DNA of 43,356 nucleotides from Candidatus Woesearchaeota archaeon (GTDB lineage Archaea > Nanobdellota > Nanobdellia > Woesearchaeales > SKGA01). Under the pieces are notes generated by a model that had not been told where the DNA came from, ran no database searches, and saw nothing but the letters and a program-made list of their open reading frames with translations. Shown one piece after another: positions 3,324 through 38,904 of the stretch (position 1 is its first letter; each line of letters starts with the position of its first letter). The position numbers and the translations under genes were made by a program. Location: NCBI GenBank assembly GCA_016926395.1, contig JAFGOT010000017.1:1-43356 (forward strand), in the 5' to 3' direction.

Positions 3324-3364
3324 TTAATTTTCCTCGAAATTTCCTCGAAAATTTAATGGAACCT

Positions 3365-3383
3365 CAAAAAACATTGTTTTTTG
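3365..3383. repeat. Boundary palindrome, copy G (CAAAAAACA-T-TGTTTTTTG)
   Basis: Perfect 9-bp arms, followed by AG on the minus strand. Flanked by direct repeat GTTTCATTTA at 3317-3326 and 3387-3396. Confidence 0.8.
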
Positions 3384-3547
3384 TTGGTTTCATTTAGTTC
3401 GTCGGTAATTTGCCTTTTTATTCAAATTAGTATATCTGGAGAAATAAGAGTAGTAATTTGTGAAGCAAACCACAATTAATACGCTTCTGATCTCTTCCTT
3501 CGCACAATAAAAAATAACGCTTAAGGGGAATTTCCCCGAAAGCTGAA

Positions 3548-3622
3548 TGCTCCGGCCGGGATTTGAACCCGAGTCCTCGGATCGAAAATCCGAGATGATT
3601 GGCCGGACTACACCACCGGAGC
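3548..3622 (-). tRNA. tRNA-Glu(TTC)
   Basis: Cloverleaf: GCTCCGG/CCGGAGC acceptor stem, CTCGGA-TTTTCGA-TCCGAG anticodon arm, GGTTCAAATCC T arm. CCA not encoded. Confidence 0.95.
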
Positions 3623-3841
3623 AAATATGTGTGCAAAGTACTCCAGAAAGCAACTGCTTCTTGTATACTTTAACTGACAAACTACTTCATCAGCAGGTCT
3701 AGGAAATAATATTTCATTTAAAAAGGTATTGTTTTATCACAAAACCAGCTAGAAGGCCTAGAAAAGCAAAATATAAAAGGTAGAAACAAAATAAAATAGC
3801 AATAAAAAGAGACTTGAGTTATAAAATATAGGGACTAAAAC

Positions 3842-4423
3842 ATGCAATTTAAAACAGAAAGAGCAATTTCTAAAGATTATATACCTAACAAGATTCTAAC
3901 ATATATTGCTAGTGATGAAGGAAGACTTCTTGAAATAAAAGCAATAGGTGAAACAGAAATAGGCCTAAATCTTAAGACAATGTGGTATATACCATATAAT
4001 ATTTCAACAATAGTGAATTGTTACAATACAATAATCAGTGAGATTGACACATTTTCAAATATTAATTATGAAGTTGCAATTGGAAGTCAAGGAAAAAGGA
4101 AAAACAAACGAGAAGAAAGAAAAATACCCTTTTCCAGACTTGATAAAGTCATCCATCCTTTAATACTAGCGAGACCAAAAGATATTGCACTTGGAATAAA
4201 TTCCAATTATGGATCATTTTGGCTTGAAGGAGATAATATACAAGAAGGAGCAGATTTTATTGAAATTGTAAGTCCATTTAATCTAGCAAAACTCATTAGT
4301 CAATTACTTAGAAAAACAAATATCATAACAACTTCTCAAAGACAAGATATGGAAACAATCCTTGACTTATCATACGACTATTACCTAAATGAAGATAGAA
4401 ACAAAATGTTTTTAATGAAATAA
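3842..4423 (+). CDS. Hypothetical protein (193 aa)
   Basis: Long ATG-started ORF divergent from tRNA-Glu. No motif recognised. Confidence 0.7.
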   Translation: MQFKTERAISKDYIPNKILTYIASDEGRLLEIKAIGETEIGLNLKTMWYIPYNISTIVNCYNTIISEIDTFSNINYEVAIGSQGKRKNKREERKIPFSRLDKVIHPLILARPKDIALGINSNYGSFWLEGDNIQEGADFIEIVSPFNLAKLISQLLRKTNIITTSQRQDMETILDLSYDYYLNEDRNKMFLMK

Positions 4424-4430
4424 GAAATGG

Positions 4431-4504
4431 TGCACCGAGCGGGAAAGCAATAATCAAAGATTATTGGTCCCTGTCATCGCATTAAAAAATGCACCGAGCG
4501 GGAA
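4431..4504. repeat. 15-bp direct repeat of the tRNA-Gly 3' end enclosing palindrome copy A (4448-4466)
   Basis: TGCACCGAGCGGGAA at 4431-4445 and 4490-4504. CAATAATC-AAA-GATTATTG lies between them. Confidence 0.9.
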
Positions 4505-4560
4505 TCGAACCCGCGCCGAAGCCTTGGCAAGGCCCCATTGTACCATTCAACCATCGGTGC
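4490..4560 (-). tRNA. tRNA-Gly(GCC)
   Basis: GCACCGA/TCGGTGC acceptor stem, GGGCC-TTGCCAA-GGCTT anticodon arm, GGTTCGATTCC T arm. Confidence 0.95.
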
Positions 4561-4615
4561 GTATAAACGTAAGTATTTATTATTCCTTTTTAAAGCTTAC
4601 GCGAAAAAACAAAAT

Positions 4616-4746
4616 GTGAGCCTGCGGGGATTCAATTAGCTACAAATCTCAAACTTGTTTGTTAGAGTTGTCTAATTGTCCCAAAAATCTTTGATTTTTG
4701 AGGATGTGAAAATACCCGAAGGTGAATAGGTGAGCCTGCGGGGATT
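4616..4746. repeat. 17-bp direct repeat of the tRNA-Ile 3' end enclosing palindrome copy B (4682-4700)
   Basis: GTGAGCCTGCGGGGATT at 4616-4632 and 4730-4746. Between them are CAAAAATC-TTT-GATTTTTG and a second inverted repeat CAATTAG...CTAATTG (4633-4678). Confidence 0.9.
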
Positions 4747-4840
4747 TGAACCCCGGACCACCAGCTCTCTTCGAGCGAAGACTCTCATGCGAGTCAGCGT
4801 CATATAAGACTGGCGCTCCACCGGACTAAGCTACAGGCTC
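4731..4840 (-). tRNA. tRNA-Ile(TAT) with 36-nt intron at position 37/38 (intron 4767-4802)
   Basis: GAGCCTG/CAGGCTC acceptor stem, A73. Removing 4767-4802 gives the anticodon arm CCAGT-CT-TAT-AA-GCTGG and a 74-nt tRNA. The junction folds as a relaxed bulge-helix-bulge with one A.G mismatch. Confidence 0.85.
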
Positions 4841-4872
4841 GGTCAAAAGTTATTCTAGAGAGCCGCCATCGA

Positions 4873-4880
4873 TTTATAAA
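4873..4880 (-). promoter_or_regulatory. Putative TATA box for tRNA-Ile
   Basis: TTTATAAA 33 nt upstream of the mature tRNA 5' end. Confidence 0.5.
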
Positions 4881-4929
4881 GGCAACGGTTAGCTAAACTT
4901 TATAAATAAACTTTATTTAAAAACAATAT

Positions 4930-5805
4930 ATGAAAAGGGTTGAGCAAAGTTCTAGATTTAACGAAGTTGTTAAAGTATTCGAAAGATACGGTTTTGGACA
5001 TTTTTTTAATGGAAATAGAAAGATGTCTGAAAGTTTACAAGAAAATCCTGAAAAAAGATTGCAAAAAGCTCTTAAACATCTAGGAGGCGGATTCTTACTT
5101 GGAGGAATTTTTTTAGCACACAGAGTAGATTTGATTCCTAATAGTTATTGCAAAGAACTTAGCAGAATAAAAGACAATGGACCAGTCTATAAGTTCGAAT
5201 ATATTGAAAAAACAATAATAAAAGACTATAGTCGACCAGTAAATACTGTATTTGATAAGATGTGGGAAAAACCCGTTGAAAGCGACACATTAACTCAAAT
5301 TCACAAAGCAAAACTAACAAATGGAGAAATAGTTTTTGTTAAAGTAATAAAAGAAAAGGCGATCGAACAAGTAAAAGATGATATAATAATTGCAAAATAT
5401 TTGGCTGAAGAAAGTAATGACGATAGAATAAAAGAAGTGGTTAAAGAATTTTCTGAACATTTCAATAAAAAGAAAACACTTAGAGCAGAACAAACATTTT
5501 TAGAAAATAGTGCTCAAGCATATGGTAGCGATTATCTTCCAACACCAATAGAACACTTATGCACCGATAAAGTTTTGATGTTCACATTTCAAAAAAATAA
5601 AGTAAAAAGTAAAAATCAATACGCAAGCATACAAAAAGAAATTAAAACAATCAAAGGAGAAATTATCTTGCTAATAATAGGAATATTAACTACATTAATA
5701 ACCATCGGAATAAAAGGACACATAAAAAACATGGGAGGTTTAATTGGAATAACAATAATAATTGTTGCGCTAATGATAGGTATCCAATCTAAACTAAGAA
5801 AATGA
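4930..5805 (+). CDS. UbiB/AarF (ABC1)-like protein, degenerate, N-lobe only, with two C-terminal TM helices
   Basis: RLQKALKHLGGGFLLGGIFLAHRVDLIP, QIHKAKLTNGEIVFVKV and LCTDKVLM align with the UbiB N-terminal half. No catalytic loop or DFG-like motif. Confidence 0.7.
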   Translation: MKRVEQSSRFNEVVKVFERYGFGHFFNGNRKMSESLQENPEKRLQKALKHLGGGFLLGGIFLAHRVDLIPNSYCKELSRIKDNGPVYKFEYIEKTIIKDYSRPVNTVFDKMWEKPVESDTLTQIHKAKLTNGEIVFVKVIKEKAIEQVKDDIIIAKYLAEESNDDRIKEVVKEFSEHFNKKKTLRAEQTFLENSAQAYGSDYLPTPIEHLCTDKVLMFTFQKNKVKSKNQYASIQKEIKTIKGEIILLIIGILTTLITIGIKGHIKNMGGLIGITIIIVALMIGIQSKLRK

Positions 5806-6089
5806 TTTTAATATATTTCTGGATTGCAATAATAATTTTTTCGGGTTGGGCAATTGCAAGATTTGCATACAATGCAATTTTAAAATCAGAAAAGGAATTA
5901 AGCCCAGAGCACATACATGTTAATGTCTGTCCCATTTGTGGAAGTTTAGAAACCACAACAACCGCAGAGAACACAACCCTAGGACTTAATTACAAATGTA
6001 AAAAATGCCTTTATGTTGGTACAATGCTTGAGATGAATTTGGTACAAGCAAAAAAATACGAAGAAATGAGAATAAAAAAAGAAAAATAA
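5802..6089 (+). CDS. Small membrane-anchored Zn-ribbon protein
   Basis: N-terminal hydrophobic helix, CPIC and CKKC pairs. ATGA overlap with the upstream stop. Confidence 0.75.
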   Translation: MILIYFWIAIIIFSGWAIARFAYNAILKSEKELSPEHIHVNVCPICGSLETTTTAENTTLGLNYKCKKCLYVGTMLEMNLVQAKKYEEMRIKKEK

Positions 6090-6092
6090 AAA

Positions 6093-7013
6093 CTATCTAA
6101 ATTTTCTGTTTCTATCTTTTTTAACCTGACAACCACCACTTGGAAGATGTTTAATTATCTCATCAAGATCGACTTTAACAGATTCTTTTTCTTTTAAAAA
6201 ATATGCAATGTGTTTAGCAACAAGACTTGATTTTTCATTACCTTGTTCAATTTCAACAAAAGTCTTACAATGAGCTTTAACAGCATCTAACGGACCTGAT
6301 AAAACCAAGTAAGAGTCGTCAAGGTTTAAAATTCCTATTCCAAAATCCATAACTGGTTGAATATAATTTGTTTCTCCTCTAATCATAAAACTTCCTTTAG
6401 GCATAAACTCTCCAGAATTAGCTTCTTTTGAAACTTGATCAGGTTTGACAAAGAAAACATCGCTAGTTCCTAAACCTGCTTTCCAAGCCCTAGAATGAAC
6501 TGCAGTAAAAGCAGCTGCTTCGAATACTGTTTGAGTTGGAAAACCCCTTGTATCGACAGGATCGCCATCTTGAGAATCATCATCCTCTAACTCATTAACA
6601 GGTTTTGGAATTGGTTTGTAGTCATCGCCCAAAAGCCTCTTTACATCGTCTCGATTGGATTTTATTACAACAAAAGGCGAACCTGCCATGTCAGTGTGAA
6701 AAACTAAATCAGGATTATCAGTATGTTTCTTAATAATTATTTCATTAGTAGTTGCATCACGTCCAGCAATAACTAAATAACCATCGGAACTTATGAACCA
6801 TTTAAATTTTTCAAACCACTGTTTTTTAGAATTATCAATATGTTTAATTAAGGATTCGTGTTTGGAAACAACAACTTCATCTTTCTTCTTTTCAAAAGTT
6901 TCTAGAGTTTTTTTTACTCCAACTACTTTTCTCTTTGCCTTTTTGCCATCTTCAAAATAAAGAGCAGCATTTTCGTCAATTGATTTATTTAGATAAAGAG
7001 TTACTTCAACCAT
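6093..7013 (-). CDS. NFACT RNA-binding (DUF814) protein, C-terminal half of Rqc2/NEMF-type proteins
   Basis: WFEKFKWFISSDGYLVIAGRDATTNE, FHTDMAGSPF, SRAW, GEFMPKGSFMIRG. Start placed at the ATG at 7013 (MVEVTL); the track starts at 7037. Confidence 0.88.
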   Translation of the reverse strand: MVEVTLYLNKSIDENAALYFEDGKKAKRKVVGVKKTLETFEKKKDEVVVSKHESLIKHIDNSKKQWFEKFKWFISSDGYLVIAGRDATTNEIIIKKHTDNPDLVFHTDMAGSPFVVIKSNRDDVKRLLGDDYKPIPKPVNELEDDDSQDGDPVDTRGFPTQTVFEAAAFTAVHSRAWKAGLGTSDVFFVKPDQVSKEANSGEFMPKGSFMIRGETNYIQPVMDFGIGILNLDDSYLVLSGPLDAVKAHCKTFVEIEQGNEKSSLVAKHIAYFLKEKESVKVDLDEIIKHLPSGGCQVKKDRNRKFR

Positions 7014-7055
7014 AACAGCATAAGAAATCACAAGCATATAAAAAAGCTACTAATT

Positions 7056-7502
7056 TTAACAAGTTGCTAGAGAAGTCTGACTAAAACCTTCACATTCAAC
7101 CAAGTCACCATCATAATTAACTAAAGGTAAGAAATCTAACTCTATACCCCCTCCACTGTAAATAAAAGGAATACTTCTTTCAAGAGCTTCACCATTAATC
7201 ATAGAAGAATCTTTAACAGCTAATTCTAAATCACCAATCTCACTTGAAGATTTAATTCGAACCGCATTAATACGAGCTTTACCTACATTCTTAACGTTAA
7301 AAGTTAATTTGCCATCAGCATAACAAATGTTTCCATTATTTTGTATTTTAACAGAAGCACAAGCAGTAGCTAAATCTACAGAGTTGTCAACTACGGCATC
7401 CGCACTCCAATTCATAATCATAGCGCCTAAAGCTACAGCGAATGCAATTAGAAGAACTGTCGCAATTAAAGGAGACATTGCTTTTTTTGAGCTGAACAAC
7501 AT
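7056..7502 (-). CDS. Archaeal type IV pilin-like protein
   Basis: Class III signal peptide KKA|MSPLIATVLLIAFAVALG. Confidence 0.88.
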   Translation of the reverse strand: MLFSSKKAMSPLIATVLLIAFAVALGAMIMNWSADAVVDNSVDLATACASVKIQNNGNICYADGKLTFNVKNVGKARINAVRIKSSSEIGDLELAVKDSSMINGEALERSIPFIYSGGGIELDFLPLVNYDGDLVECEGFSQTSLATC

Positions 7503-7575
7503 ATAAGTAAGCTGGATAATCAGAGTATTTAAAGGTTTTGAATAAAATAGATATCATTTAACAGTAGCAAAACAC

Positions 7576-9495
7576 CTAATTCAAAGTCATTGAGCGATGT
7601 AAATTTGAATAAAAAATGTTTGATTCTTTTCTAGCTAGACGTTCAACAATAAGTTGAGGAGTGCTTCTTGCCAGACGACCAATAATAGGATTTCGATCAA
7701 CAACCAAATTCAAATCATTATCCAAACCTTTAGCTTCAATTCCATCAAAACGACAGTTAATAGATGGTGAAAGTTCATTACCCATGTGAGTTACTAAAAC
7801 CATCATAGTTCTTTGTTGAACAGAAAGATGATCTATTATCCCTTCAATAATCTTTGTTGCCACACTTGGTTCAGTAACTGATTCAATTTCATCTGCCAAA
7901 ACTAAACGAGGAGAATTATCATTATTTATTTCCGCAAATTGTTTCAACAAAGTTTCAAAAGCACCAGCATTAAGACTGCCTTTATTTTTAGAAAAATAAT
8001 ACAGCTCTTCAATTATTCCAACTCGTGCTTGCTTTGCAGGAACAAACAAACCCATTTGAGTCAATAATTGAACTTGAGCAAGAAGTTCGAGCAACGTGGT
8101 TTTTCCCCCACTATTAGCGCCGGTTAAAACAGTTATGTTGTCAGTATTGGAATTACCATGTGCAGTACCAATGTAATACTCAACAGGAACCGCATTTGTT
8201 ATATTTAAATTTCTCCCATAAACAAAAGAGAGTCCTTTTTCCGAAATAAAAGGTCGTTCTAAATCATAATCAAAAATAAAATTACCTATCGCTAAAAACA
8301 AATCCAGACCATAAACTTCTTCAACAACAAAAGGCAAATTTTCAATCAATTCCTTGGCAGAGAGGGCAGTTAATTGTTTATGTTTAGTAAAATTTTGTTC
8401 TTGCGAAATCAAAAATTGTTGTTTAATAAGATCTAATTGAGACTCATCAACGGACACATTTCCAATATAATCAACACTGAATAACTCAGAAGTTCCAGAA
8501 CCTAAAATATCAGAAGCAGATTTCATAATTTCTTGTTTCTTTGAACGTATAATTTCTTGAGAAGAAACATCAAGTAAATCAATTAAACTCTTCTTGTTTG
8601 AAATAACACCCATCAAAGTATTTCCAGAAAATGCTGCCTTTGAAATTTGCGATTGAATTAGTTTCTCCAATTCTTTTGCAAGAGAATATATTAAAGGTTC
8701 AATTTCAGAAAATTTTTGTTTTGTTAAAACTGTCGAACTTGGTTTATCAGGAAGAGATTTTAATTTAATTAAAGAATCAAGACTGTAAAGAGAATCAATA
8801 ACCAATTTATTTTCCTCAACTAAATCAGTTATGAATTCAGGAGCAACATCTTCTAGAGAGGGAGTTCCTAGAAGAGTTGTTGCCTGAGGAAGTTGCTCGA
8901 TAAGAGAATTAAAAGAATCATTTTTTCCAGGAATAAAACGTATTTGTTCATAATGATCAATCGACATTATGTCATGTTCAGACTCAATAAAAGTGATATA
9001 AAACTTTTTTGAAAGGATGTTTTTCATATCAGAATAAAGAGAGTCGTCTGCAAAAGCAATAACAACACCATTACGTCTTTTCAAAGAAGAATATTTAACA
9101 TTAGAAATATTTTTAATGAACGTCCTTACAAGTTCAATACTGTCCTTTACAGATTTATAATTGTTGCTTGCAATCTCGGAAATGTTTTGACGCTTTTTTA
9201 TTTCATCAATATTTGTGGTTGGAAAAAATTTTAAGATTAATTCCTTAGCATAATCGGTTGTGATATAACTCTTTATTTTATTAATTATTTGCATCTGTAA
9301 TTCTCTAGCTTTTCGTGTTCTAAAAATATTAACATAATTTTTTGAAAAAATAGTACGAATTATTTTAATTTTGGAATCGTCTTCAATATCTAAATTCAAC
9401 AATAAGTGATAATTTTCATTTTCGAGAATAGTTTTTATTTGAGTAAAATGTTGAGGATAAGATTCTTCAATTTTTTGAAGGAAGTTTTCAACCAT
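7576..9495 (-). CDS. MutS-family ATPase (archaeal MutS5-like, domain V)
   Basis: Walker A TGANSGGKTT, LAQVQLLTQMGLFVPA, Walker B LADEIESVTEP, VTH, GIEAKGL. Confidence 0.85.
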   Translation of the reverse strand: MVENFLQKIEESYPQHFTQIKTILENENYHLLLNLDIEDDSKIKIIRTIFSKNYVNIFRTRKARELQMQIINKIKSYITTDYAKELILKFFPTTNIDEIKKRQNISEIASNNYKSVKDSIELVRTFIKNISNVKYSSLKRRNGVVIAFADDSLYSDMKNILSKKFYITFIESEHDIMSIDHYEQIRFIPGKNDSFNSLIEQLPQATTLLGTPSLEDVAPEFITDLVEENKLVIDSLYSLDSLIKLKSLPDKPSSTVLTKQKFSEIEPLIYSLAKELEKLIQSQISKAAFSGNTLMGVISNKKSLIDLLDVSSQEIIRSKKQEIMKSASDILGSGTSELFSVDYIGNVSVDESQLDLIKQQFLISQEQNFTKHKQLTALSAKELIENLPFVVEEVYGLDLFLAIGNFIFDYDLERPFISEKGLSFVYGRNLNITNAVPVEYYIGTAHGNSNTDNITVLTGANSGGKTTLLELLAQVQLLTQMGLFVPAKQARVGIIEELYYFSKNKGSLNAGAFETLLKQFAEINNDNSPRLVLADEIESVTEPSVATKIIEGIIDHLSVQQRTMMVLVTHMGNELSPSINCRFDGIEAKGLDNDLNLVVDRNPIIGRLARSTPQLIVERLARKESNIFYSNLHRSMTLN

Positions 9496-9554
9496 AAAAA
9501 TTAAAATAATACCAGGAGTTTAAAAGAGCTATGTGTGTTTGTCCAGTGAAGGTG

Positions 9555-15056: not shown

Positions 15057-15147
15057 CTATTTACCTAAACTTTTTTGGAACAACAATAATCAAAGATTAT
15101 TGAGCTTCAAAAGATCACTTTCCAAGTGACTTTTGAAATATAAGTAA
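15057..15147. repeat. Synonymously recoded duplicate of a CDS 3' end enclosing palindrome copy C (15084-15102)
   Basis: In-gene TTT CAA AAG TCA CTT GGA AAG TGA and downstream TTC CAA AAA AGT TTA GGT AAA TAG both read FQKSLGK*. CAATAATCAAAGATTATTG is identical to copy A. Confidence 0.9.
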
Positions 15148-16008
15148 GTCTTCGGTGGTAAGTTTTTTACCAGTTTTAACTTTCTCATTAACTTCTTTAG
15201 CTTTTTCTTTAAGGTTGATTTGTTCTTGACGTTTTTTATCTTCGTCAATTTTAACATCAGCTTCTTGAAGAACGCCTCTAAGTTCATCAGTTTCTTTTAG
15301 AAGTTCTTTTAATTTGTTATTTTTTTCAGTAAACAAATCCTTGTATTCTTTGAACTTTTCAAAGTAACCTTGTTCTTCTTCTTTTAAGGCATCAATTTCT
15401 TTAGATTGTTCAATAACATTTTCATGTTTAGTTTGAGAATTTGCTGCTTTTCGTTGAATTTGTCTATGAGCAGTGTTTGATTTTCTTCGAAGTTTGTTAA
15501 CTTCTTTAGTTAGAACACTAATTTTTTCCCAATCACCAACAACAGAACTCATTTCATCTAGTTTTTTTCGAAGGGATTTGATTTCCTTCATCATTTTTTG
15601 TTCTTTATCAAAACTCATTGGTTGAGTTTGCATAACATAATCTAGACGTTCAAGTTGTTTTTTTATAAGAGCTGGATTGTCTTCTTTTGAAGTTTTGGAG
15701 GATCCAACTTTAGAATCGTAATTATCTTTTAGAGCTTTTAATTCCGCAGCTTTTTCGTTAATCTCTTTGTTAAGCTCGTCTCTTTGCTCTTTTAGTTCTT
15801 TGACTTTTCCACTAAGTTCGTTTCGTTCGTCTTTAGAACCTTTAACACCACCAATTAAATCAGTGATTTTTTTGTTGACTTCAGAGCGCTTTGAATACCA
15901 AGATTCTTTTTCTCTGTTTAACTTGTTTAACTCTTTCTTTAAAGCACTAACTTGTACTCGTAAATCCTTAAGTCGCTGAACTTGTTCTTTAACTTCTGCG
16001 TTCTCCAT
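15115..16008 (-). CDS. Archaeal coiled-coil protein (COG1340-like)
   Basis: Continuous heptad-rich K/E sequence, QTQPMSFDKEQ, terminal GKKLTTEDLLIFQ. Confidence 0.8.
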   Translation of the reverse strand: MENAEVKEQVQRLKDLRVQVSALKKELNKLNREKESWYSKRSEVNKKITDLIGGVKGSKDERNELSGKVKELKEQRDELNKEINEKAAELKALKDNYDSKVGSSKTSKEDNPALIKKQLERLDYVMQTQPMSFDKEQKMMKEIKSLRKKLDEMSSVVGDWEKISVLTKEVNKLRRKSNTAHRQIQRKAANSQTKHENVIEQSKEIDALKEEEQGYFEKFKEYKDLFTEKNNKLKELLKETDELRGVLQEADVKIDEDKKRQEQINLKEKAKEVNEKVKTGKKLTTEDLLIFQKSLGK

Positions 16009-29855: not shown

Positions 29856-29884
29856 TTAAACCCCCTTTAAAAAAATAAAAAAAA

Positions 29885-31812: not shown

Positions 31813-31859
31813 AACAACCAAAGCAACAACAAACTTTATCGTTTTCAAATAACCCCCTA

Positions 31860-32016: not shown

Positions 32017-32118
32017 ATTTTTTCTAAAATCAAAATATAACCAAAAATACACATCCCACAAGATTTATAAATAATAATTCTAGAAATAAGTACATCCTGC
32101 TTATTATTGAATAAGCAA

Positions 32119-32192
32119 AAGAGGTAAAAAAAATGCAAACAAAAATGAATTTTCATTTTTGAGTATTTTTTTAACAAGAGGTAAAAAAAATG
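32119..32192. repeat. 17-bp direct repeat of SD plus start codon enclosing palindrome copy E (32140-32161)
   Basis: AAGAGGTAAAAAAAATG at 32119-32135 and 32176-32192. CAAAAATGAA-TT-TTCATTTTTG-AG lies between them. Confidence 0.9.
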
Positions 32193-32495
32193 AGTTGCAA
32201 AGTTCTACGTGAAAGAATCATGCGTGAATCTAATATCGAAATTAGAAAAAGACAAGAAAGCATAATGCGAAGAAATCACACAATATTACTAATACTATTC
32301 TTAGGTGGCGGATATTTGGTATTTAGAAGCCTACTAACATACGCACAAGGAATTTTTGTTGCAGCTATTTTCCTAGCATGGTATGGATATTTAGAAAACT
32401 ATCTTCACAGATATGAAGAACATACTAACGCTCTAATCAAAGGCGTTAAAGGAGTAGAAGCAGCAACAAAAGTTGCAAAATCTAAAAAGAAATAA
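32190..32495 (+). CDS. Small two-TM membrane protein
   Basis: GAGGT SD and two hydrophobic helices. Confidence 0.75.
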   Translation: MSCKVLRERIMRESNIEIRKRQESIMRRNHTILLILFLGGGYLVFRSLLTYAQGIFVAAIFLAWYGYLENYLHRYEEHTNALIKGVKGVEAATKVAKSKKK

Positions 32496-32514
32496 TTGAA
32501 GCAATGCTTCAATT
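32494..32514. terminator. Perfect inverted repeat between convergent genes (possible bidirectional terminator)
   Basis: AATTGAAGCA-A-TGCTTCAATT followed by a T tract. Confidence 0.5.
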
Positions 32515-32553
32515 TTTATTTTAACAAAATAATAAATCAAATTTAGTAAATTT

Positions 32554-32901
32554 CTACCACTTTTTAACTTCAGAAAGAACTGCATTATACCACTCAGATA
32601 CAACTTCAGTTATTCTTTTACGCAAATACTCTTTGTCTTTAATTTTATAAACAAAAATATAACCTCCTTGATCAAGGTTAACTTGATGTTTATGAACTAA
32701 ATCCATGTCAAGCAAGTGCTTGATTGCTTTTTGTATAGTGGTTCTATCTTTGCTAACCATTTCACCAATAGAAGAAGCGCAAAGAGATTCAGTTTGCTTC
32801 ATTAAAAAGAGCAAAAGATTATACTCTGTTTTGTTAAGATTAAAACTACACATCAAAATATCTTTCAAATCAATTTGTTTACAAGCAAACGAAACCACCA
32901 C
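32554..32901 (-). CDS. Winged-helix transcriptional regulator (TrmB-like HTH)
   Basis: CSFNLNKTEY, DRTTIQKAIKHL, GGYIFVY. Start placed at GTG 32901 after GGAGGA; the track uses TTG 32907. Confidence 0.85.
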   Translation of the reverse strand: MVVSFACKQIDLKDILMCSFNLNKTEYNLLLFLMKQTESLCASSIGEMVSKDRTTIQKAIKHLLDMDLVHKHQVNLDQGGYIFVYKIKDKEYLRKRITEVVSEWYNAVLSEVKKW

Positions 32902-32903
32902 AA

Positions 32904-33845: not shown

Positions 33846-33897
33846 TTCTATACACCTAGGATTTTCAAAAAAGAAAAAATAAAGAAAAAATCAACGC

Positions 33898-34215
33898 TTA
33901 AAGCATCGAATCAATTCTCTGTTTTAGAAGATCTTTTGGCAAGAATCCAACTAATCGATTAACTTCTTTACCATCTTTAGCAAGAACTAAAGTAGGAATA
34001 CCTTGAATTCCAAAAGGGCCTGCAAGTTCAGGATAATCCTCTGTATTAATTTTAACAAAATTAATTTTACCCTCATAAACTGTAGAAAGTTCTTCAAATA
34101 CAGGACCCATCATTTTACAAGGACCACACCAAGGAGCCCAAAAATCAATTAGGACTGGAAGGTCGGATTTTACTATTTTCTCTTCAAAATTTTCTGGAGT
34201 TATATGTTCTACCAT
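33898..34215 (-). CDS. trxA: Thioredoxin
   Basis: DFWAPWCGPCK and GIPT. ATG at 34215 has a GGTGAT SD; the track starts at TTG 34230. Confidence 0.97.
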   Translation of the reverse strand: MVEHITPENFEEKIVKSDLPVLIDFWAPWCGPCKMMGPVFEELSTVYEGKINFVKINTEDYPELAGPFGIQGIPTLVLAKDGKEVNRLVGFLPKDLLKQRIDSML

Positions 34216-34284
34216 TTGTATATCACCCAACGTTTGTTAGTTTATGCGTACTTTACGCACTAGTGATTAGAATATTCGCACTCA

Positions 34285-34292
34285 TTTATAAA
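34285..34292 (-). promoter_or_regulatory. Putative TATA box for trxA-trxB-HTH
   Basis: TTTATAAA upstream of trxA. The leader contains the hairpin TGCGTA-CTT-TACGCA (34245-34259). Confidence 0.45.
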
Positions 34293-34355
34293 CATGATGA
34301 AGCTGTGCTAAAGAAGAGAAAAAATAATCACAACCGAAGAAAGAAAAAGAAAAAA

Positions 34356-35840
34356 CTAATCTACCTTATCTAAAGGTTTCATAGTTGGAAAGAAAATAAT
34401 ATCTCGAATTGATTCTTGACCAAGAAGGATCATAATCATTCTATCAATACCAATGCCAATACCACCTGCAATAGGCATGCCTGTTTCCATAGCATCTAAG
34501 AATTGTTCATCAATAGGATTAGCCTCATCATCACCTGCATCAAGTTGTCTTTGTTGATCTTCTAAAAGAGTTCTTTGAAGAACAGGATCATTTAATTCAG
34601 AATAAGCATTACCTAGTTCCATACCCATACAAAATGGTTCGAATCGCTCAATAAGACGAGCATCACCAGATCTCAGACCCTTACATAAAGGAGTAGATTC
34701 ACGAGGATGGTCTATTATGAAAGTAGGGTTAATATATTTATCTTCACAAAAATGTTCAAAAATTGCACCAACTAAATTACCCCAATTAACTTCTTTTTCA
34801 AAATCAATTAGATTTTCTTCAACAAAATCTTGAAGCTGAGTTGCATCCATATTTAGAACATCAATGCCCGCATGTTCTTTTATAGAATCAGCCATCGTAA
34901 TTCTTGGCCAAGGCTTTTTAACATCAATTTTTTGACCTTTAAATTCAACAATAGTAGTTCCTAAAACTTTGTTTGCAACAAAATCATACATTGATTCCAT
35001 CAAGTCCATCATATCATGGTAATCAGCATAAGCTTGATATGCTTCAAGTAAAGTAAACTCAGGATTATGTGTTGTATCAATACCTTCATTTCGAAAATTT
35101 TTATTAATCTCAAAAACTTTTTCAAAACCACCAACTAATAATTGTTTTAAAAATAATTCAGGACTAATTCTAAGATACATATCCATATCAAGTTCATTAT
35201 GATGAGTTACAAAAGGCTTAGCAGAAGCACCACCATATTGTGTTTGTAAAATAGGCGTTTCAACTTCTAAGAAACCACGCTGAATCATAAATTCACGAAT
35301 AGCTTGAAGAATTCGTAGTCTTTTTTCAAAAATATCTTTACTACCTTTGTTCATAATCAAATCCAAATGTCGTCTTCGATATTTTATCTCAGTATCTTTA
35401 ACGCCGTGAAATTTTTCAGGAAGAGTTTTAATAGCCTTACAAAGAATAACATACTCTTTAGCATGAACAGTAACTTCACCCATTCTGGTTTTAAAAATAG
35501 AACCTTTAACACCAATAATGTCTCCAATATCTAATTTTTTTAGAAGTTTGTAAGTGTCGGAACCAACATCATCACTTCTAAGATAAACTTGAAGAGAACC
35601 TTCACCATCTTGTATTGTAACAAATGAAGCTTTACCCATATTACGCATAAGCATAATACGACCAGCAACTGAAACGACATCATCAACATGATCCTCAGGT
35701 TCTAATGAAGAATAATCACTCTTAATAACAGAAGACTTCTTAGTAACATCAAACTTGTGAGGGTACGGGTTTATACCTAGCTCTTTAAGCTCGTTAAGTT
35801 TTCTGACTCGTTCTTGTATTAAACGGTTTTCTTCTGCCAT
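34356..35840 (-). CDS. lysS: Lysine-tRNA ligase, class II
   Basis: OB-fold AGRIM..R.MGK, LEVETPIL, LRISPEL, FRNEGIDTTHNPEF, GNAYSELND, GIGIDR. Confidence 0.97.
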   Translation of the reverse strand: MAEENRLIQERVRKLNELKELGINPYPHKFDVTKKSSVIKSDYSSLEPEDHVDDVVSVAGRIMLMRNMGKASFVTIQDGEGSLQVYLRSDDVGSDTYKLLKKLDIGDIIGVKGSIFKTRMGEVTVHAKEYVILCKAIKTLPEKFHGVKDTEIKYRRRHLDLIMNKGSKDIFEKRLRILQAIREFMIQRGFLEVETPILQTQYGGASAKPFVTHHNELDMDMYLRISPELFLKQLLVGGFEKVFEINKNFRNEGIDTTHNPEFTLLEAYQAYADYHDMMDLMESMYDFVANKVLGTTIVEFKGQKIDVKKPWPRITMADSIKEHAGIDVLNMDATQLQDFVEENLIDFEKEVNWGNLVGAIFEHFCEDKYINPTFIIDHPRESTPLCKGLRSGDARLIERFEPFCMGMELGNAYSELNDPVLQRTLLEDQQRQLDAGDDEANPIDEQFLDAMETGMPIAGGIGIGIDRMIMILLGQESIRDIIFFPTMKPLDKVD

Positions 35841-35865
35841 AGTACAGCTTAAAAAATAGGCTTTG

Positions 35866-35873
35866 TTTATAAA
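35866..35873 (-). promoter_or_regulatory. Putative TATA box for lysS (near-leaderless transcript)
   Basis: TTTATAAA 26 nt upstream of the ATG. Confidence 0.5.
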
Positions 35874-35899
35874 ATTAGCGAGAAAGAAAGAAAATAAAA

Positions 35900-35963
35900 C
35901 TAAAATGAAGCGTTTATAGTCCTCAAAAATGAAATTTTTGGGACATTAAAAAGAAGCTTTTAT
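35900..35963. repeat. Diverged duplicate of the DHH gene 3' end enclosing palindrome copy D (35924-35940)
   Basis: In-gene ATA AAA GCT TCT TTT TAA versus downstream ATA AAC GCT TCA TTT TAG. The minus strand between them reads GTCC-CAAAAAT-TTC-ATTTTTG-AGGAC. Confidence 0.8.
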
Positions 35964-37325
35964 TGATTCTATGAATTCTTCTTTCTTGTCTTTGTTAATG
36001 ACAGCACCGGCTGCATTATCATGACCGCCACTAGTTCCACCAACTTTGGAAACTGCATCACTTAAGACTTCTTGAAGTTTAAAATCTTTCGCAGATAAAC
36101 TTACCCTAAGAGAAACTTTAATTTCATCAGTAGATGTTTCACCAAGAGTACAAACTACAACACCTTCACGATAAATTTTATTTCTTGCAAGAATTGAAGC
36201 AACAATACCAACAATACTTGAAGGAATTTTATTTTCAAAATCAATTAAAACTAATTTATCATTTTCTATTAAAGTACCTTGTGCTCTTTTATCATCAACA
36301 ATTTGAAGTGCATCCCTGATTGCAGATTTGTAAACACGAAGATTCATACTTGCAATTTGTGCGGCATCTCTATCTCCTTTTAATGTATTAACACCAACCC
36401 TATATTGTTCGAGTCTTCCGCTTGCGTTAATTATTGTTGCACACTCACGTATATCAATCATTTCACGTCTAGGTGCATTTGGAAGAGAATAAGCATAAAC
36501 CAATAGTTTAGAATCATCCTCTTGAGCTCCTTTTAATTCAAGAATCTTTTCAGTAATAGCAGCTTGTTCAAAAGGTCTTAAATTAAACCATTTTTTTAAT
36601 CGGCCATTCCATTCCCACATAATACCAAGATCATCTAAAAAATCTTTAACACCTTTAGGATCATTTGTTACGCCCGGAATGTCAACATCACTACTGTATT
36701 CTAGAACTTTAAGTAAAGGACGAGAATTAATACCATAAAGTTTTATTTGTTTAGATAACACAACAGTCTTTTGAATAACAGCATGTTGTAATATTCTATT
36801 ATTTAAATCTTGAAAACCATTATCTTCTTGAGAATCACCAATCGCGCCTATTACAGCTAAGTGAGCAAGTGTACGATTATCTTTGTTCATACCCATAGCA
36901 AAGAAATAACAAACACCACTACCGCTGATACTGTTTTTTTCAGTAACACCACTAACCAAAGGATTAATATGAACTAAATGTAAATTATCATTAGTGGAAG
37001 GTTCGTGATGGTCAAGAACAAAAACTAGTTTATCATTTGCAAACTCAGATATTTTTTCAAGAACAGTAGCACCAATGTCTGCAAAAACATAAACATCAGA
37101 GTCAGTCTTAAAAACAGAATCTAAAAAAATCTCATCAAGAGATTGGGCGTGCATAGTAACATACGAAATATTCTCTCTATCAAAAGCAAGTTCTAAAAGA
37201 GCAGCAGAACTTAAACCATCAGTATCAAAATGAGTAACAAGAGCAACATGTTTACCTTTTGCTACTTCAACAAATTCTTTTCCCGCCTTAGTTGCGGCAT
37301 CTACAAAATCATCATGTAAAGACAT
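35946..37325 (-). CDS. DHH-family RecJ/GAN (Cdc45-like) nuclease
   Basis: THFDTDG, FADIG, LDHH, GAIGD, NASGR, GGHDNAAG. Adjacent to rps15, as in many archaea. Confidence 0.88.
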   Translation of the reverse strand: MSLHDDFVDAATKAGKEFVEVAKGKHVALVTHFDTDGLSSAALLELAFDRENISYVTMHAQSLDEIFLDSVFKTDSDVYVFADIGATVLEKISEFANDKLVFVLDHHEPSTNDNLHLVHINPLVSGVTEKNSISGSGVCYFFAMGMNKDNRTLAHLAVIGAIGDSQEDNGFQDLNNRILQHAVIQKTVVLSKQIKLYGINSRPLLKVLEYSSDVDIPGVTNDPKGVKDFLDDLGIMWEWNGRLKKWFNLRPFEQAAITEKILELKGAQEDDSKLLVYAYSLPNAPRREMIDIRECATIINASGRLEQYRVGVNTLKGDRDAAQIASMNLRVYKSAIRDALQIVDDKRAQGTLIENDKLVLIDFENKIPSSIVGIVASILARNKIYREGVVVCTLGETSTDEIKVSLRVSLSAKDFKLQEVLSDAVSKVGGTSGGHDNAAGAVINKDKKEEFIESIKASF

Positions 37326-37428
37326 AAAATATCCCCTTTTAATAGTTAAACTGCAAACGGTAAGCTAAAAAAAACTTTCGCGAACAGCAATAAGAAAAAA
37401 GAAAAAAAATGAAAGTAAACAACTAAGT

Positions 37429-37884
37429 TTACTCGATATTCATTTTGATTTGTTTTGGATTGTAGTTCCAATCTTTAGAAACTCGACCGGTTTTTTTGTA
37501 ATACTTAACTAATCGAAGAATTTTAGATTCAGTTAAAGTCAAACCTCTAACAGCAGGTTGATCTTTATGATTTGCCTCTAAGTGTTCTTGAATTGACAAA
37601 ACTTTTTTTAGAAGAGCAGTTAAGTCATCTGGAAGTTTTTTAGTCATTTCTTTTTCGCCAAGTATTGCAGAAATAGTTTTACCAGTCATAACTTTAACAC
37701 TAGGAATACCATATTCATCTCTTAAGAAAAGACCAATTTGACTTGCAGTTTTTCCTTCTTTAGCATATTTAACAACTAGAAGTTCAATTTCCTTAGCGGA
37801 ATATTTTACCCAAGACGGAGCTTGAGGAGCGGAAGGTTTAGTACTTCCTGAATTACCTTTTTTTCGACTATACATTCGTGCCAT
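37429..37884 (-). CDS. rps15: 30S ribosomal protein S15 (uS15/S13e)
   Basis: MARMYSRKKG.SGS.KP, SQIG..LRDEYGIP, LTESKI.RLVKYYK. Confidence 0.97.
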   Translation of the reverse strand: MARMYSRKKGNSGSTKPSAPQAPSWVKYSAKEIELLVVKYAKEGKTASQIGLFLRDEYGIPSVKVMTGKTISAILGEKEMTKKLPDDLTALLKKVLSIQEHLEANHKDQPAVRGLTLTESKILRLVKYYKKTGRVSKDWNYNPKQIKMNIE

Positions 37885-38035
37885 TTTATTTACCTTGTGT
37901 CATATAGCTACGCGGAAATCAGCGAACTGAAAACAACCACCATAAGACCATTTCAGCGACCAAACAGCGAAACAAAAATCAGAGAACTGAAATCTGCAAC
38001 CGTTGTGGTGCGTAGGATTAAAGAATCATCTTCCT

Positions 38036-38043
38036 TTTATAAA
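38036..38043 (-). promoter_or_regulatory. Putative TATA box for rps15, implying a ~125-nt leader
   Basis: TTTATAAA 152 nt upstream of the rps15 ATG. Confidence 0.45.
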
Positions 38044-38097
38044 TATTATAGTAAATCAACCAAAACTTTATAAATAAATTAAGTCATTTTTAAATAC

Positions 38098-38517
38098 ATG
38101 AGACTTCTCCAATCAAGAAAAGGAATGATTGCAGGCATGGAAATGCCAAGAGCAGTAAACTTGATTCTAGCAATAATTACAGCAGCAATTGGCGTGATTG
38201 GAATATTTGGTTCAGTAATTGGTTTTAATCTACCAACAATCCCAGGAATAATAATATATGGATTGCTTGCAATTGCAGGCTTGGTGATAATTCTTGACGG
38301 AATGCTTGGCGTTGGAATGGGAATGGTTCAAATGATGCCAAGAGCAGTAAATTTTATGGTTGGACTCTTAGTATTACTTGCAGGGGCAACACTTTTAGTT
38401 GGACAATTTGGAATAATACCGCTACCAGCAATACCAACAATTGTTGAGCACATAATCTTACTATTAGCAGGCGGAGTTATGCTTTTAGATGGAATCTTGG
38501 GCGCTAGAAACATGTAA
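38098..38517 (+). CDS. Hydrophobic membrane protein made of two internal repeats
   Basis: Two ~64-aa units, MPRAVN...LP.IP.I....LL..AG....LDG.LG. ATGCCAAGAGCAGTAAA is repeated at 38143 and 38335. Confidence 0.8.
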   Translation: MRLLQSRKGMIAGMEMPRAVNLILAIITAAIGVIGIFGSVIGFNLPTIPGIIIYGLLAIAGLVIILDGMLGVGMGMVQMMPRAVNFMVGLLVLLAGATLLVGQFGIIPLPAIPTIVEHIILLLAGGVMLLDGILGARNM

Positions 38518-38579
38518 GAGTCGCTCTAAGAAAGTTAAAAGATAGCTTTATAAACAAACATCGATTTCTCGATACTACT

Positions 38580-38834
38580 ATGAATGGCACAATTGTTAAT
38601 TACAAAGGCGGAAAGCATACGCAAGTAACTAACCAAATGATCATTACTGTCGAAAATATTACTACTAAAGAAGAAGCTGCAAAACTAGTAGGTAAAAAAG
38701 TTACTTACAACACTGGTAAAAAAGACATTACTGGTGAAGTACGGTCAGCTCATGGTAATAGCGGAGCTATTCGAGTATTATTTGAAACAGGAATGCCAGG
38801 TCAAGCAATTGGCAAACCGGTTAAAATTGCGTAA
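38580..38834 (+). CDS. rpl35ae: 50S ribosomal protein L35Ae (eL33)
   Basis: IVNYKGG.HTQ, A.KLVGKKV, HGNSGAIR..F..GMPGQAIG. Confidence 0.95.
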   Translation: MNGTIVNYKGGKHTQVTNQMIITVENITTKEEAAKLVGKKVTYNTGKKDITGEVRSAHGNSGAIRVLFETGMPGQAIGKPVKIA

Positions 38835-38861
38835 ATAAGTAAAGTTAAATATCCATGCAAA

Positions 38862-38883
38862 CAAAAATCTTGCCAGGTTTTTG
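38862..38883. repeat. Boundary palindrome, copy F
   Basis: ATGCAAA-CAAAAATCT-TGCC-AGGTTTTTG-AGCATTTTTT shares both flanks with copy E. Confidence 0.75.
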
Positions 38884-38904
38884 AGCATTTTTTAAGGTGA
38901 AAAA

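Follow-up and report, generated by a model that had tools for sequence, protein, structure and literature searches.

What are the seven short palindromes that lie at gene boundaries in a 43,356-nt stretch of DNA from Candidatus Woesearchaeota archaeon (GCA_016926395.1, contig JAFGOT010000017.1, positions 1 to 43,356 of the forward strand; hereafter the window), and how did they get there? DPANN archaea have tiny, tightly packed genomes and are thought to be poor in mobile elements. A sequence-only reading of the window had proposed a dispersed, miniature, non-coding and non-autonomous element at gene termini that leaves the genes intact, and our analysis supports this: the palindromes are copies of a tiny gene-less mobile module whose insertion points coincide precisely with gene and tRNA ends. 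The coordinates and sequences of all seven inverted repeats proved correct, none (0/7) lies within a called open reading frame, copies A and C share an identical 19-mer, and TTGAG is present on one strand at six of the seven. That reading had seen only part of the structure. A larger, strand-specific motif of two helices surrounds the palindrome, which forms its core, and the family is order-wide: the module occurs commonly within a single order of very small archaea (DPANN, Woesearchaeota-type).

Copies A and B stand behind tRNA genes. Copy A (4431–4504, plus strand) adjoins tRNA-Gly(GCC) (4490–4560, minus strand), whose own 3' end is the proximal repeat (4490–4504); the distal repeat (4431–4445) is followed by a CCA complement and then by the core hairpin (4448–4466) with an outer helix GGGA/TCCC. 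The duplication is 15 bp and exact, the insert is 44 nt, and the period is 59. Copy B (4616–4746, plus strand) lies behind the intron-containing tRNA-Ile(UAU) (4729–4840, minus strand). Its insert of 97 nt has two hairpins (second hairpin 4650–4661; core hairpin 4682–4700, flanked by an outer helix TCC/GGA) between exact 17-bp repeats (distal 4616–4632, proximal 4730–4746; period 114), and a homologue of this two-hairpin insert is found behind a tRNA-Met on another contig (C19).

Copies E, G and F are at start codons. Copy E (32119–32192, plus strand), at the start of the gene 32190–32495 (plus strand), has a distal repeat (32119–32135) that includes a ribosome-binding site and an ATG, a 40-nt insert (32136–32175) with the core hairpin at 32140–32161, and a proximal repeat (32176–32192); the 17-bp duplication is exact and the period is 57. 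Copy G (3311–3396, minus strand) is at the start of the small L41e gene (3222–3323, minus strand), with its core hairpin (3365–3383) between L41e and tRNA-Glu. The proximal repeat (3311–3326) and the decayed distal repeat (3381–3396), which holds a pseudo-start codon (3391–3393), match over 16 bp with 3 mismatches (9 bp exact; period 70), and the insert contains an 11-nt tandem repeat (cgaggaaattt). Copy F (38855–38907, plus strand) lies between an L35Ae-like gene (38580–38834) and spt4 (38905–39093). It consists of an old start codon (38855–38857), a core hairpin (38862–38883) that pairs only with one T·G wobble, an outer helix ATGC/GCAT, a T-run, a new ribosome-binding site and the start codon (38905–38907); a search of copy F for a clear direct repeat gave nothing beyond the ATG.

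Copies C and D stand behind stop codons. In copy C (15057–15140, plus strand), the live end (15115–15140) of the gene 15115–16008 (minus strand) is followed by the core hairpin (15084–15102) and by a decayed distal copy of the gene's last ~24 nt (15057–15083). This is its only repeat (by eye; period ~58–59), and its 12-nt tail includes an 8-mer (TTCAAAAG) that matches part of the gene end exactly in inverted orientation (by eye). Copy D (35901–35963, minus strand), behind the gene 35946–37325 (minus strand), has a proximal repeat that ends within the stop codon (35947–35963), a core hairpin (35924–35940) flanked by an outer helix GTCC/GGAC, and a decayed distal repeat (35901–35917), the repeats being 17 bp long with 3 mismatches (period 46). 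The direct repeats that had been noticed around six of the seven hairpins are thus present, exact at A, B and E, with mismatches at D and G, and decayed at C.

The palindromes are insertions. At the copy E locus, a metagenome contig (L056) whose flanking genes are ~84% identical carries the 17-mer once (1 mismatch), so this copy fits the descriptive class of an insertion with long target duplication, having no mobility gene and a target that is single-copy in the empty allele. The tRNA-Gly(GCC) site of copy A is empty in four relatives (G010, G011, G001 and G003) and holds other inserts in four more (G007, G006, G009 and G008). The copy B site is empty in G003 and contains inserts of other families in G013, G004 and G010. 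The L41e leader is uninterrupted in sister species (L021, L025 and L029), leaving the copy G site empty, and in ten sister species only 15–45 nt, with no hairpin, separate the two genes around copy F. Across genera we saw the opposite of conserved locus occupancy.

This variation bears on the idea that the hairpins are host regulatory structures (terminators, attenuators or translational switches) that arose in place and are immobile. Many copies do have a T-run after the hairpin, the start-codon copies have a sense/antisense/sense layout that could sequester the start codon, and E, F and G contain upstream reading frames of 9 codons. However, presence varies at orthologous sites of sister species, the duplication is exact, unrelated loci carry the same 19-mer, orientation at 3' ends is mixed, and dead copies decay without compensation in the hairpin (copy C). 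We consider this the most improbable explanation of all those weighed.

To gauge the family beyond the window, we scanned the whole host genome for hairpins of the pattern CAAWAAN with a stem of at least 7 bp and a loop of 1–9 nt, using 60 third-order Markov simulations as the null. There were 28 intergenic hairpins, compared to 1.5 ± 1.3 expected (maximum 6 in the simulations), and no excess within genes (9 observed, 7 expected). Flanking repeats with a score of at least 12 occur at 11 of the 28 hairpins and at 7 of 300 random intergenic positions.

The duplications are sharp-edged and variable in length. In 13 young copies they span 12–33 bp, most commonly 14–17, and identity in the 12 nt beyond the repeats falls to background level (3.6 vs 3.2 of 12). 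Gene termini anchor the insertion point: a gene or tRNA terminus falls within 24 of 26 duplications, whereas 35% would be expected for tolerated random placements. Among the detected tRNA genes, 10 of 28 have such a duplicate, and the tRNA duplications begin in the T-loop (positions 56–60). The gene survives because its end is duplicated at insertion. All eight start-codon copies (8/8) are in sense orientation with the junction 0–4 nt past the ATG, whereas 3'-end copies are mixed relative to the gene (6 vs 4); there is no replication-strand bias (9/13). Inserts are 40–46 nt in seven simple copies and 34–127 nt overall, with no gene content. The insert ends CAAA... and ...TTTTTAAC are common to copy E and the C2:22596 copy, two insertions at unrelated targets. 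The sum of insert and duplication is 56–60 nt in most simple copies, which is steadier than either part.

Repeats around an insert at a tRNA end could also be attL/attR scars, left where tyrosine-recombinase elements, each supplying a surrogate end, integrated at tRNA or gene ends before nearly all of their DNA disappeared. The host genome has five tyrosine-recombinase genes, tRNA 3' ends are the classic att sites, and some distal copies resemble diverged alleles (for example at tRNA-Gly in G006). But no recombinase gene is near any hairpin, and the integrase flanked by the same hairpin that had been anticipated was not found among the five. No gene lies between the repeats (inserts 34–127 nt), the inserts are uniform in size and not ragged deletion remnants, the same ~40-nt module occurs at unrelated targets including the L41e, spt4 and S13 start codons, each with its own repeat, and the empty site of copy E points to a simple target duplication. 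We regard att scars as very improbable.

The motif is strand-asymmetric and its helices covary. It consists of a conserved A/T core helix (CAAWAAT...ATTWTTG), one unpaired base on the 3' side, and an outer helix whose sequence differs from locus to locus. In 20 of 31 cases an A is the base left unpaired, which accounts for the TTGAG signature. Outer helices of at least 3 bp occur 16 times with gaps (0,1), compared to 2.5 expected, and 10 times with gaps (2,1), compared to 1.7 expected, whereas contiguous extension of the core helix was never seen (5.4 expected). Outer helices of at least 4 bp are enriched, not universal (11 of 28, vs 18% in controls). Their arms vary between copies while complementarity is kept; in copies B and D both arms are inside the insert. 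In the young copies E and C15 complementarity between outer arm and target is incomplete, so the arm looks inherited and not copied on arrival.

The A-T/T-A swap between hairpins, which had been described as compensatory, is true covariation, since all sites listed in 41 relatives are matched pairs and, among the sites listed from a 401-genome phylum sample, only two have mixed pairs at that position. A reversed-pattern control was found in 0 of 41 and 2 of 401 genomes. The exact 19-mer is present in 96 of the 401 genomes, 88 of them in the window's order. Rfam 15 covariance models matched only the three tRNAs, and the hairpins gave nothing at E ≤ 1.

Because the tRNA duplications start in the T-loop, we considered whether the inserts are relatives or precursors of bulge-helix-bulge introns, with the insert and one repeat spliced from read-through transcripts, and loss of the proximal repeat giving a T-loop intron. 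One relative, G002, has a genuine intron family at position 59/60 with a bulge/4-bp helix/bulge fold (its tRNA-Glu intron folded accordingly as our positive control), and one tRNA of this genome bears both an intron and a repeat-flanked insert. But copies A–G fold as a core helix, a 1-nt bulge and an outer helix, without the 3-nt bulge/4-bp helix/3-nt bulge; splicing is unnecessary, given a complete proximal tRNA copy with a T-run behind it; protein genes host most copies; and the intron and hairpin families have no common sequence. Such a kinship is very unlikely.

Common transposase families were not found, in a survey of about ten transposase and recombinase families whose negatives are to be read against a host genome completeness of 82.5%. 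The host genome had no match to Y1-HUH/RAYT (PF01797), RVT_1, Cas1 (PF01867), DDE_Tnp_1, rve, DDE_3, the DEDD IS110 family, TnpB or serine recombinase. Y1-HUH is also absent from the 18 searched genomes of the host's family (0/18) and present in 5 of 41 relatives; RVT_1 is present in 9 of 41. The complete, hairpin-bearing genome G033 has no reverse transcriptase (RVT_1), IS4-type DDE, Y1 or IS91 genes. The host does have one IS91-type HUH gene, on a contig (C18) that lacks any CAAWAAT hairpin, also at the ends of the gene, and that is not repeated elsewhere in the genome; genes of this type occur in 9 of 401 genomes, are absent from those with many hairpin copies, and do not co-occur with the hairpin. 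The suggested HUH or RAYT mover is not supported.

Nor is the analogy to REP, MITE or PATE elements. All share with the module a short, non-coding, hairpin-forming, dispersed, intergenic and non-autonomous character. A MITE would have inverted repeats at both termini and a short duplication of fixed length; here the sole inverted repeat is internal (2–4 nt from one end and 14–23 nt from the other), so there are no terminal ones, the insert ends (CAAA.../...TTTTTAAC) are not complementary, the duplications are long and variable with sharp edges, and no autonomous partner IS with matching ends was found in the 82.5% complete genome. REP/REPIN-RAYT and PATE (IS200/IS605) elements require a Y1 transposase and make no target duplication. 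IS91/ISCR is rejected since its gene neither tracks the hairpin nor has matching ends. Integron attC sites have the core RYYYAAC...GTTRRRY, which differs from the arms CAAWAAT/ATTWTTG, and do not fit the presence of duplications; the host recombinases score under every curated integron-integrase cut-off. Casposon or CRISPR-type integration finds no Cas1 family match.

To our knowledge, the only well-known routes to long variable target duplications are IS4 elements of the IS1634/IS1549 type and SINEs, which use target-primed reverse transcription. These need a DDE_Tnp_1 transposase or a reverse transcriptase, neither of which was found in the host genome or G033. Retroposition of small RNAs by target-primed reverse transcription would give SINE-like variable duplications like those seen. 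Other points in its favor are the strand specificity of the motif, tails that in some copies (A and C37) end in an A-run, and tolerance of G·U-type wobbles in F, E and C32. The absence of RVT_1 here and in G033, its presence in so few relatives, and the mixed orientation relative to transcription at 3' ends make this a highly improbable source. Our literature search found no published description of the hairpin element, in agreement with the earlier remark that it is not a described family, and no described mobile element or enzyme accounts for it.

The reading that we tentatively prefer, at a little short of an even chance, is a non-autonomous element that is recognized as a single strand and copied into gene ends by a candidate route with homology-guided targeting. 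Each palindrome is the core of a 34–46-nt non-coding module, with longer versions being two stacked modules or having an added second hairpin. A new copy would be templated on an existing one, by copying rather than excision, and would be joined to the chromosome across a staggered break 12–33 bp wide that brackets the gene's last bases (start-codon region, stop codon, or tRNA T-loop to 3' end). Fill-in of the stagger would duplicate the gene end, leaving the gene intact, with a dead copy beyond the insert. The module may be read as a single-stranded intermediate (core helix, unpaired base, outer helix); the 5' arm of its outer helix is often identical to the bases that end the target. Brief stretches of pairing or homology with the target end may guide the incoming strand to A-run plus ATG sequences, stop codons, and the T-arm/acceptor ends of tRNAs. 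Such homology guidance is suggested by three tRNA pairs: related inserts lie behind tRNAs with unusually similar 3' ends (ranks 2, 21 and 40 of 378 pairs). A dedicated protein is only a candidate for the central step: the survey tied none to the element.

Several observations sit awkwardly with this preferred reading. At a tRNA-Leu (C32) there is a 10-of-11-nt inverted copy of the target; both this and the exact inverted 8-mer in copy C give the impression of having been written from the target during insertion, for which a simple inherited guide would be insufficient. Also, a plain staggered cut does not predict the constant sum of insert and duplication. The outer helix that is not universal, its two arms within the insert in B and D, the mixed 3'-end orientation and the missing replication-strand bias count against it too.

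It may instead be that no dedicated enzyme is involved and that host replication and repair spread the module, by template switching or by short-patch gene conversion between gene ends. A nascent or broken strand ending in a shared motif (ATG plus A-run, a stop codon, a tRNA T-loop or CCA end) would anneal to an existing copy, copy the module, and return to its own locus a few bases upstream, duplicating the intervening stretch; the hairpin's role would be fork stalling. The missing transposase families, including those missing from hairpin-bearing G033, are consistent with this, as are the variable duplication length, the related inserts at similar tRNA ends, and junctions that both fall on the only short sequences common to unrelated genes. 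In G002, tRNA-Ile and tRNA-Glu carry a T-loop intron with 100% identity, and the T-stem that accompanies it is foreign to tRNA-Ile, which indicates co-conversion and so recombinational spread, and bacterial insertions with long target duplication likewise have no enzyme (PMC2853133). Against this, copy E and the C2:22596 copy have the same module ends and length at dissimilar targets, the uniform module length is unexplained, and no donor–recipient pair with junction microhomology has been demonstrated. The core and bulged-A architecture is kept across an order, which favors a specific reader. We judge the enzyme-free route fairly unlikely.

Among the closest known systems are bacterial insertions with long (and variable) target duplication (Nobusato et al. 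2000, cited in Furuta et al. 2010, PMC2853133). Those insertions, like the module, lack a mobility gene of their own, have direct target duplications longer and more variable than any transposase's, often overlap a gene 3' end or a tRNA, and have no assigned mechanism (PMC2853133). They differ in carrying kilobases of restriction-modification genes with duplications of 30–400+ bp, compared to a ~40-nt multi-copy hairpin with 12–33 bp here. No archaeal case passed the screen in PMC2853133, whose criterion was a duplication of at least 30 bp, longer than those of the hairpin module. Yeast mitochondrial GC42 palindromic GC clusters (PMC4478555) resemble the module in being ~40 nt long and gene-less, proliferating in compact A+T-rich genomes with fast turnover, keeping their stems by compensatory change, and having no identified transposase; flanking co-conversion is reported for them. 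They differ in having a 2-nt (AG) target duplication and a G+C-rich sequence that is not terminus-anchored, whereas the module is A+T-rich. Mobile archaeal tRNA introns (Thermoproteales-type intron transposition), whose route of arrival has been called open (bioRxiv 10.64898/2026.10.13.758758), are also short structured inserts that hop from one tRNA gene to another within a genome without an enzyme of their own. Unlike them, the module leaves the gene uninterrupted, has no bulge-helix-bulge, has a target duplication, and is also found at protein-gene starts and stops. Fungal double-hairpin elements, too, resemble the module: they are tiny (~40 nt), gene-less and palindromic, multiply and turn over fast in compact A+T-rich genomes, keep their stems through compensatory change, and are not known to have a transposase.

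It is possible, though on balance doubtful, that prokaryotes have here a new kind of mobile element, in which a ~40-nt hairpin is copied as a single strand, its 3' arm base-pairs with the last bases of a gene to choose the target, and target-primed synthesis gives the long duplication, by an undescribed enzyme or by host replication proteins only, the same route bringing non-canonical tRNA introns into archaea. Should the mechanism prove new, prokaryotes would gain a further class of transposition (pairing-guided single-strand target-primed, or enzyme-free copy-choice). It would also explain the origin of spacers, new ribosome-binding sites and terminators in streamlined genomes, and would offer a testable route by which archaeal tRNA introns arrive. 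As bait for a reader protein, the motif is sufficiently short and conserved. Small inserts, each paired with a spare duplicate of the gene end, sit at the extreme end of more than one-third of the tRNA genes detected and of several ribosomal and transcription genes; such duplicates mislead tRNA and gene callers and are mistakable for att sites. Other hairpin families in the host genome produce the same kind of duplication.

All seven inverted repeats described in the sequence-only reading are present in the window (G, 3365-3383; A, 4448-4466; B, 4682-4700; C, 15084-15102; E, 32140-32161; D, 35924-35940; F, 38862-38883), and we confirm that they belong to a dispersed hairpin family. The window is contig C22 of a 1.02-Mb assembly (32% G+C, 40 contigs, 82.5% complete) and has three archaeal marks: an L41e gene, TATA-like boxes and an intron-bearing tRNA-Ile(UAU). 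The canonical 36-nt intron of this tRNA gene (4729-4840, minus strand) is conserved, like the gene itself, across the genus. An Rfam scan of the window matched tRNAs only. Counting genome-wide every hairpin that starts with CAAWAA and has a perfect stem of at least 7 bp around a loop of 1-9 nt, we found 28 in intergenic DNA, which makes up 9% of the genome, compared to 1.5 +/- 1.3 expected from third-order Markov sequence; within genes there were 9, compared to 7 expected. The window holds 6 of the 28 (copy F, which has a wobble pair, was left out of the count) and is therefore a hot spot for the hairpin. Direct repeats scoring at least 12 flank 11 of the 28 hairpins, compared to 7 of 300 random intergenic positions.

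The compensatory swap between copies is real by pattern searches and pair counts: in 41 relatives, all the sites listed have either CAAAAATC/GATTTTTG or CAATAATC/GATTATTG, and only two mixed-pair sites are among those listed from 401 genomes. Sister species also have variants in which stem changes compensate each other, such as CAAAAAGC/GCTTTTTG. We found the exact 19-mer pattern in 19 of the 41 relatives and in 96 of the 401 genomes, an even sample of the phylum. The window's order, represented by roughly 280 genomes, accounts for 88 of these 96, at up to 16 copies per genome; other orders, with about 120 genomes in all, account for only 8. Four unpublished genomes (G258, G406, G370 and G335) are part of these tallies, and no specific claim depends on them.

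The hairpin copies are insertions. Mobility, as proposed in the sequence-only reading, can be checked by looking for empty sites in relatives, and we found one for copy E: in the window the 17-mer AAGAGGTAATAAAATG is present twice, bracketing a 40-nt insert, and in a metagenome contig (L056) whose flanking genes are about 84% identical there is a single AAGAGGTAATAAAATG before the orthologous gene. The sites of copies A, B, F and G are also empty or differently filled in sister species. The 3' flank of tRNA-Gly/tRNA-Ile (A and B) is empty or has another insert with its own duplication, the L41e leader (G) is uninterrupted, and in ten sister species only 15-45 nt, with no hairpin, lie between the L35Ae-like gene and spt4 (F). 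The inserts therefore turn over fast, and the same sites serve more than one insert family, several in all. For copy D, comparison of synteny with relatives found the neighboring contigs rearranged. The idea that the ribosome-binding site came in with copy F itself is weakened because the old leader resembles that of G002, another genome of the genus; for the same reason copy F may be an old insertion whose repeat copies have both since diverged.

From an unbiased list of short-range direct repeats we identified at least 26 inserts in the genome with repeats of 12-82 bp on either side. Of these 26 duplications, 24 take in a start codon, stop codon or tRNA 3' end, compared to 35% expected for insertions placed at random wherever no gene would be broken (binomial P ~1e-9), which supports the reading of a mobile miniature element at gene termini. 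Reading the gene-side junctions by eye, we placed 7 of 9 at gene starts 0-4 nt past the ATG, about 8 of 12 at gene ends no more than 3 nt from the stop codon, and most of those at tRNAs at position 73-75. Several gene-end junctions fall within the stop codon, and the missing base or bases then come from the insert. Among the 28 tRNA genes detected, ten are followed by an insert and then a second copy of their 3' end, and the hairpin is present at seven of these ten; in three tRNA genes an encoded CCA is kept in the distal copy and the live, gene-side copy is followed by a T-run. The tRNA-Leu(UAG) gene on contig C32 (10123-10260) has its 3' end in three copies, with two different inserts stacked behind it. 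At tRNA-Val(CAC) (contig C2, 20285-20420) nearly all the changes that set the dead distal 3' end apart from the live one are C-to-T (CCTTTCCCCGCACCA vs CCTTTCTCTGTACTT). Two further insert families have no CAAWAAT hairpin and lie between duplicates, 22-82 bp long, of gene 3' ends. The first carries ...cgctcgcctat(t)gcaagaatggc... (C33:3784-3900 and C38:7514-7641) and also occupies the tRNA-Ile site of another genome, G013; the second carries ...ggtgcagcttttgtgtgaaaaggtgc... (C29:9514-9682, C38:2965-3186 and C17:39127-39320).

Identity falls to background level immediately beyond the repeats, so the duplications are sharp-edged, and we rejected on this ground the longer, decayed duplications proposed by a tolerant local aligner. 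Duplication lengths are 12, 14, 14, 14, 15, 17, 17, 17, 20, 21, 25, 32 and 33 bp, and simple inserts are 40-46 nt long. The sum of insert and duplication is steadier than either part, at 56-60 nt in most simple copies; copy G comes down from 70 to 59 when an internal 11-nt tandem repeat is removed, and the 114 of copy B is two units. We dismissed as numerology a match of the 57-59-nt period to multiples of archaeal histone wrapping.

On one strand, the usual order of the module is first repeat, 0-4 nt, core hairpin, one unpaired base, outer arm, an often T-rich tail, and second repeat, where the outer 3' arm is short and complements the end of the first repeat. We counted 45 copies, drawn from this genome together with 18 relatives: an outer helix of 3 bp or more lies (0,1) unpaired bases from the core in 16 cases (2.5 expected) and (2,1) unpaired bases from it in 10 (1.7 expected); contiguous extension of the core is never seen (5.4 expected). 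On the 3' side, the unpaired base was an A 20 times out of 31. This bulged-A, two-helix layout explains the TTGAG to which the sequence-only reading drew attention: the core ends there, and the bulged A and the outer helix's first G follow. The outer arms vary among copies and keep their complementarity (ATGC/GCAT, GTCC/GGAC, ACGC/GCGT, ATGACC/GGTCAT, GGGA/TCCC and GAAGCA(C)AGGA/TCCTTGCTTC). From the strand polarity of the motif we infer that it is read as a single strand, of DNA or RNA; the motif strand has no bias toward a replication strand (9 of 13) or the coding strand (8 of 13). One full motif (C29:2821-2843; TGC, a 23-nt hairpin, A, GCA) lies in a low-complexity linker inside a 328-aa membrane-protein ORF, possibly as an in-frame intragenic copy. 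In copies E (32133-32162), F (38855-38884) and G (3364-3393, minus strand), a frame of nine codons runs from the displaced old start codon to the TGA inside TTTTTGAG, the same layout as in a leader-peptide attenuator. This length is not kept in other start-codon copies, and its sharing by the three may be chance.

Related inserts sit behind tRNAs whose sequences from T-loop to 3' end are unusually similar: among 378 pairs, Val(CAC)/Leu(UAA) ranks 2, Gly(GCC)/Gly(UCC) 21 and Ile(UAU)/Met 40. Start-codon copies are all in the sense orientation (8 of 8), and ATG...CAT outer arms are common to all of them. In the young copies, E and C15, the 3' arm has only a partial match to the target, and one arm, GCTTCAT, is shared by C33:24747 and locus L004, two copies whose genes differ and whose genomes belong to different families of the order. 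Together these suggest that the outer arm is inherited and that the target is picked by partial pairing or homology. In two other copies the arm looks written from the target: the inner insert at tRNA-Leu(UAG) has a 10/11-nt inverted copy of the tRNA end adjoining its hairpin, and copy C has an exact 8-mer that matches the live gene and not the decayed copy. Both processes may be at work.

No enzyme could be tied to the hairpin; about ten enzyme families and IS91 were excluded. In the 82.5%-complete genome we did not find RVT_1, Y1_Tnp, Cas1, DDE_Tnp_1, rve, IS110, serine recombinase or DDE_3, and the TnpB zinc ribbon gave one sub-threshold match only. Among the 41 relatives, RT is present in 9, DDE_Tnp_1 in 12 and Y1 in 5, with no Y1 match within the window's family; the complete, single-contig genome G033 has four hairpins and yet lacks RT, DDE_Tnp_1 and Y1. 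The genome's five tyrosine recombinases all score below the curated XerA and integron-integrase cut-offs, and none has a hairpin nearby. On the 2.6-kb contig C18 an IS91-family (Y2-HUH) transposase gene (L105, 290-2300; 408 bits, cut-off 125) overlaps a gene for a tyrosine recombinase. This may be a genuine archaeal IS91, or a bacterial fragment binned here by mistake. The transposase-recombinase pair is found in three of the six richest of the 41 genomes, a link that disappears in the 401: nine genomes have the IS91-type gene (this one and eight others), four of these nine have the hairpin, and the genomes richest in hairpins lack the gene. There is no sequence link either, as C18 contains no hairpin and no repeat found elsewhere in the genome. 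The proposal of an HUH enzyme is accordingly not supported. We also rejected a 193-aa ORFan (3842-4423, plus strand) as a candidate. It lies between copies G and A in a tRNA-Glu/tRNA-Gly/tRNA-Ile cluster that is compact in sister species, has no Pfam match, and has a single homolog in 5.8 billion proteins, which cannot account for an order-wide family.

The reading of a mobile miniature element at gene termini is supported and its assignment to a known family is not: we tested the defining features of MITE, REP/RAYT, PATE, IS91, integron attC, integrase att site, SINE, casposon and bulge-helix-bulge intron, and the module lacks those of each. For the last, the hairpins fold without a bulge-helix-bulge arrangement. 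In the literature searched we found no published description of a hairpin module with gene-end duplication. Among the nearest systems, the bacterial "insertion with long target duplication" (PMC2853133) has kilobase-sized cargo and longer repeats, and mitochondrial GC clusters (PMC4478555) have a duplication of 2 nt. New here are the empty site of copy E, the bulged-A two-helix definition with its counts, the order-wide census, the terminus statistics, the exclusion of enzyme families and IS91, the likeness of tRNA ends bearing related inserts, and a co-converted intron family.

That intron family bears on the main rival explanation, in which the hairpin has no enzyme of its own and spreads by recombination. 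In G002, one family of ~45-nt introns occupies T-loop position 59/60 in four tRNA genes (L095, G002:C33, 263-420 and 753-876; L100, G002:C13, about 8250-8700), and the intron of tRNA-Glu has a good bulge / 4-bp helix / bulge fold. The copies in tRNA-Ile and tRNA-Glu share a 61-nt stretch at 100% identity, including a T-stem (CCGGG/CCCGG) that is absent from the tRNA-Ile of every other species compared. The flanks have thus been co-converted, and the introns have spread by recombination. Such a route exists in the genus, which keeps the enzyme-free explanation alive and ties the phenomenon to the arrival of archaeal tRNA introns, itself an open question (bioRxiv 10.64898/2026.10.13.758758). ARAGORN misses or mis-ends the intron-bearing tRNA genes of G002, and the tRNA-Ile of this genome also has an insert apart from the intron, with a ~30-bp duplicate of the gene's 3' end at its flank.
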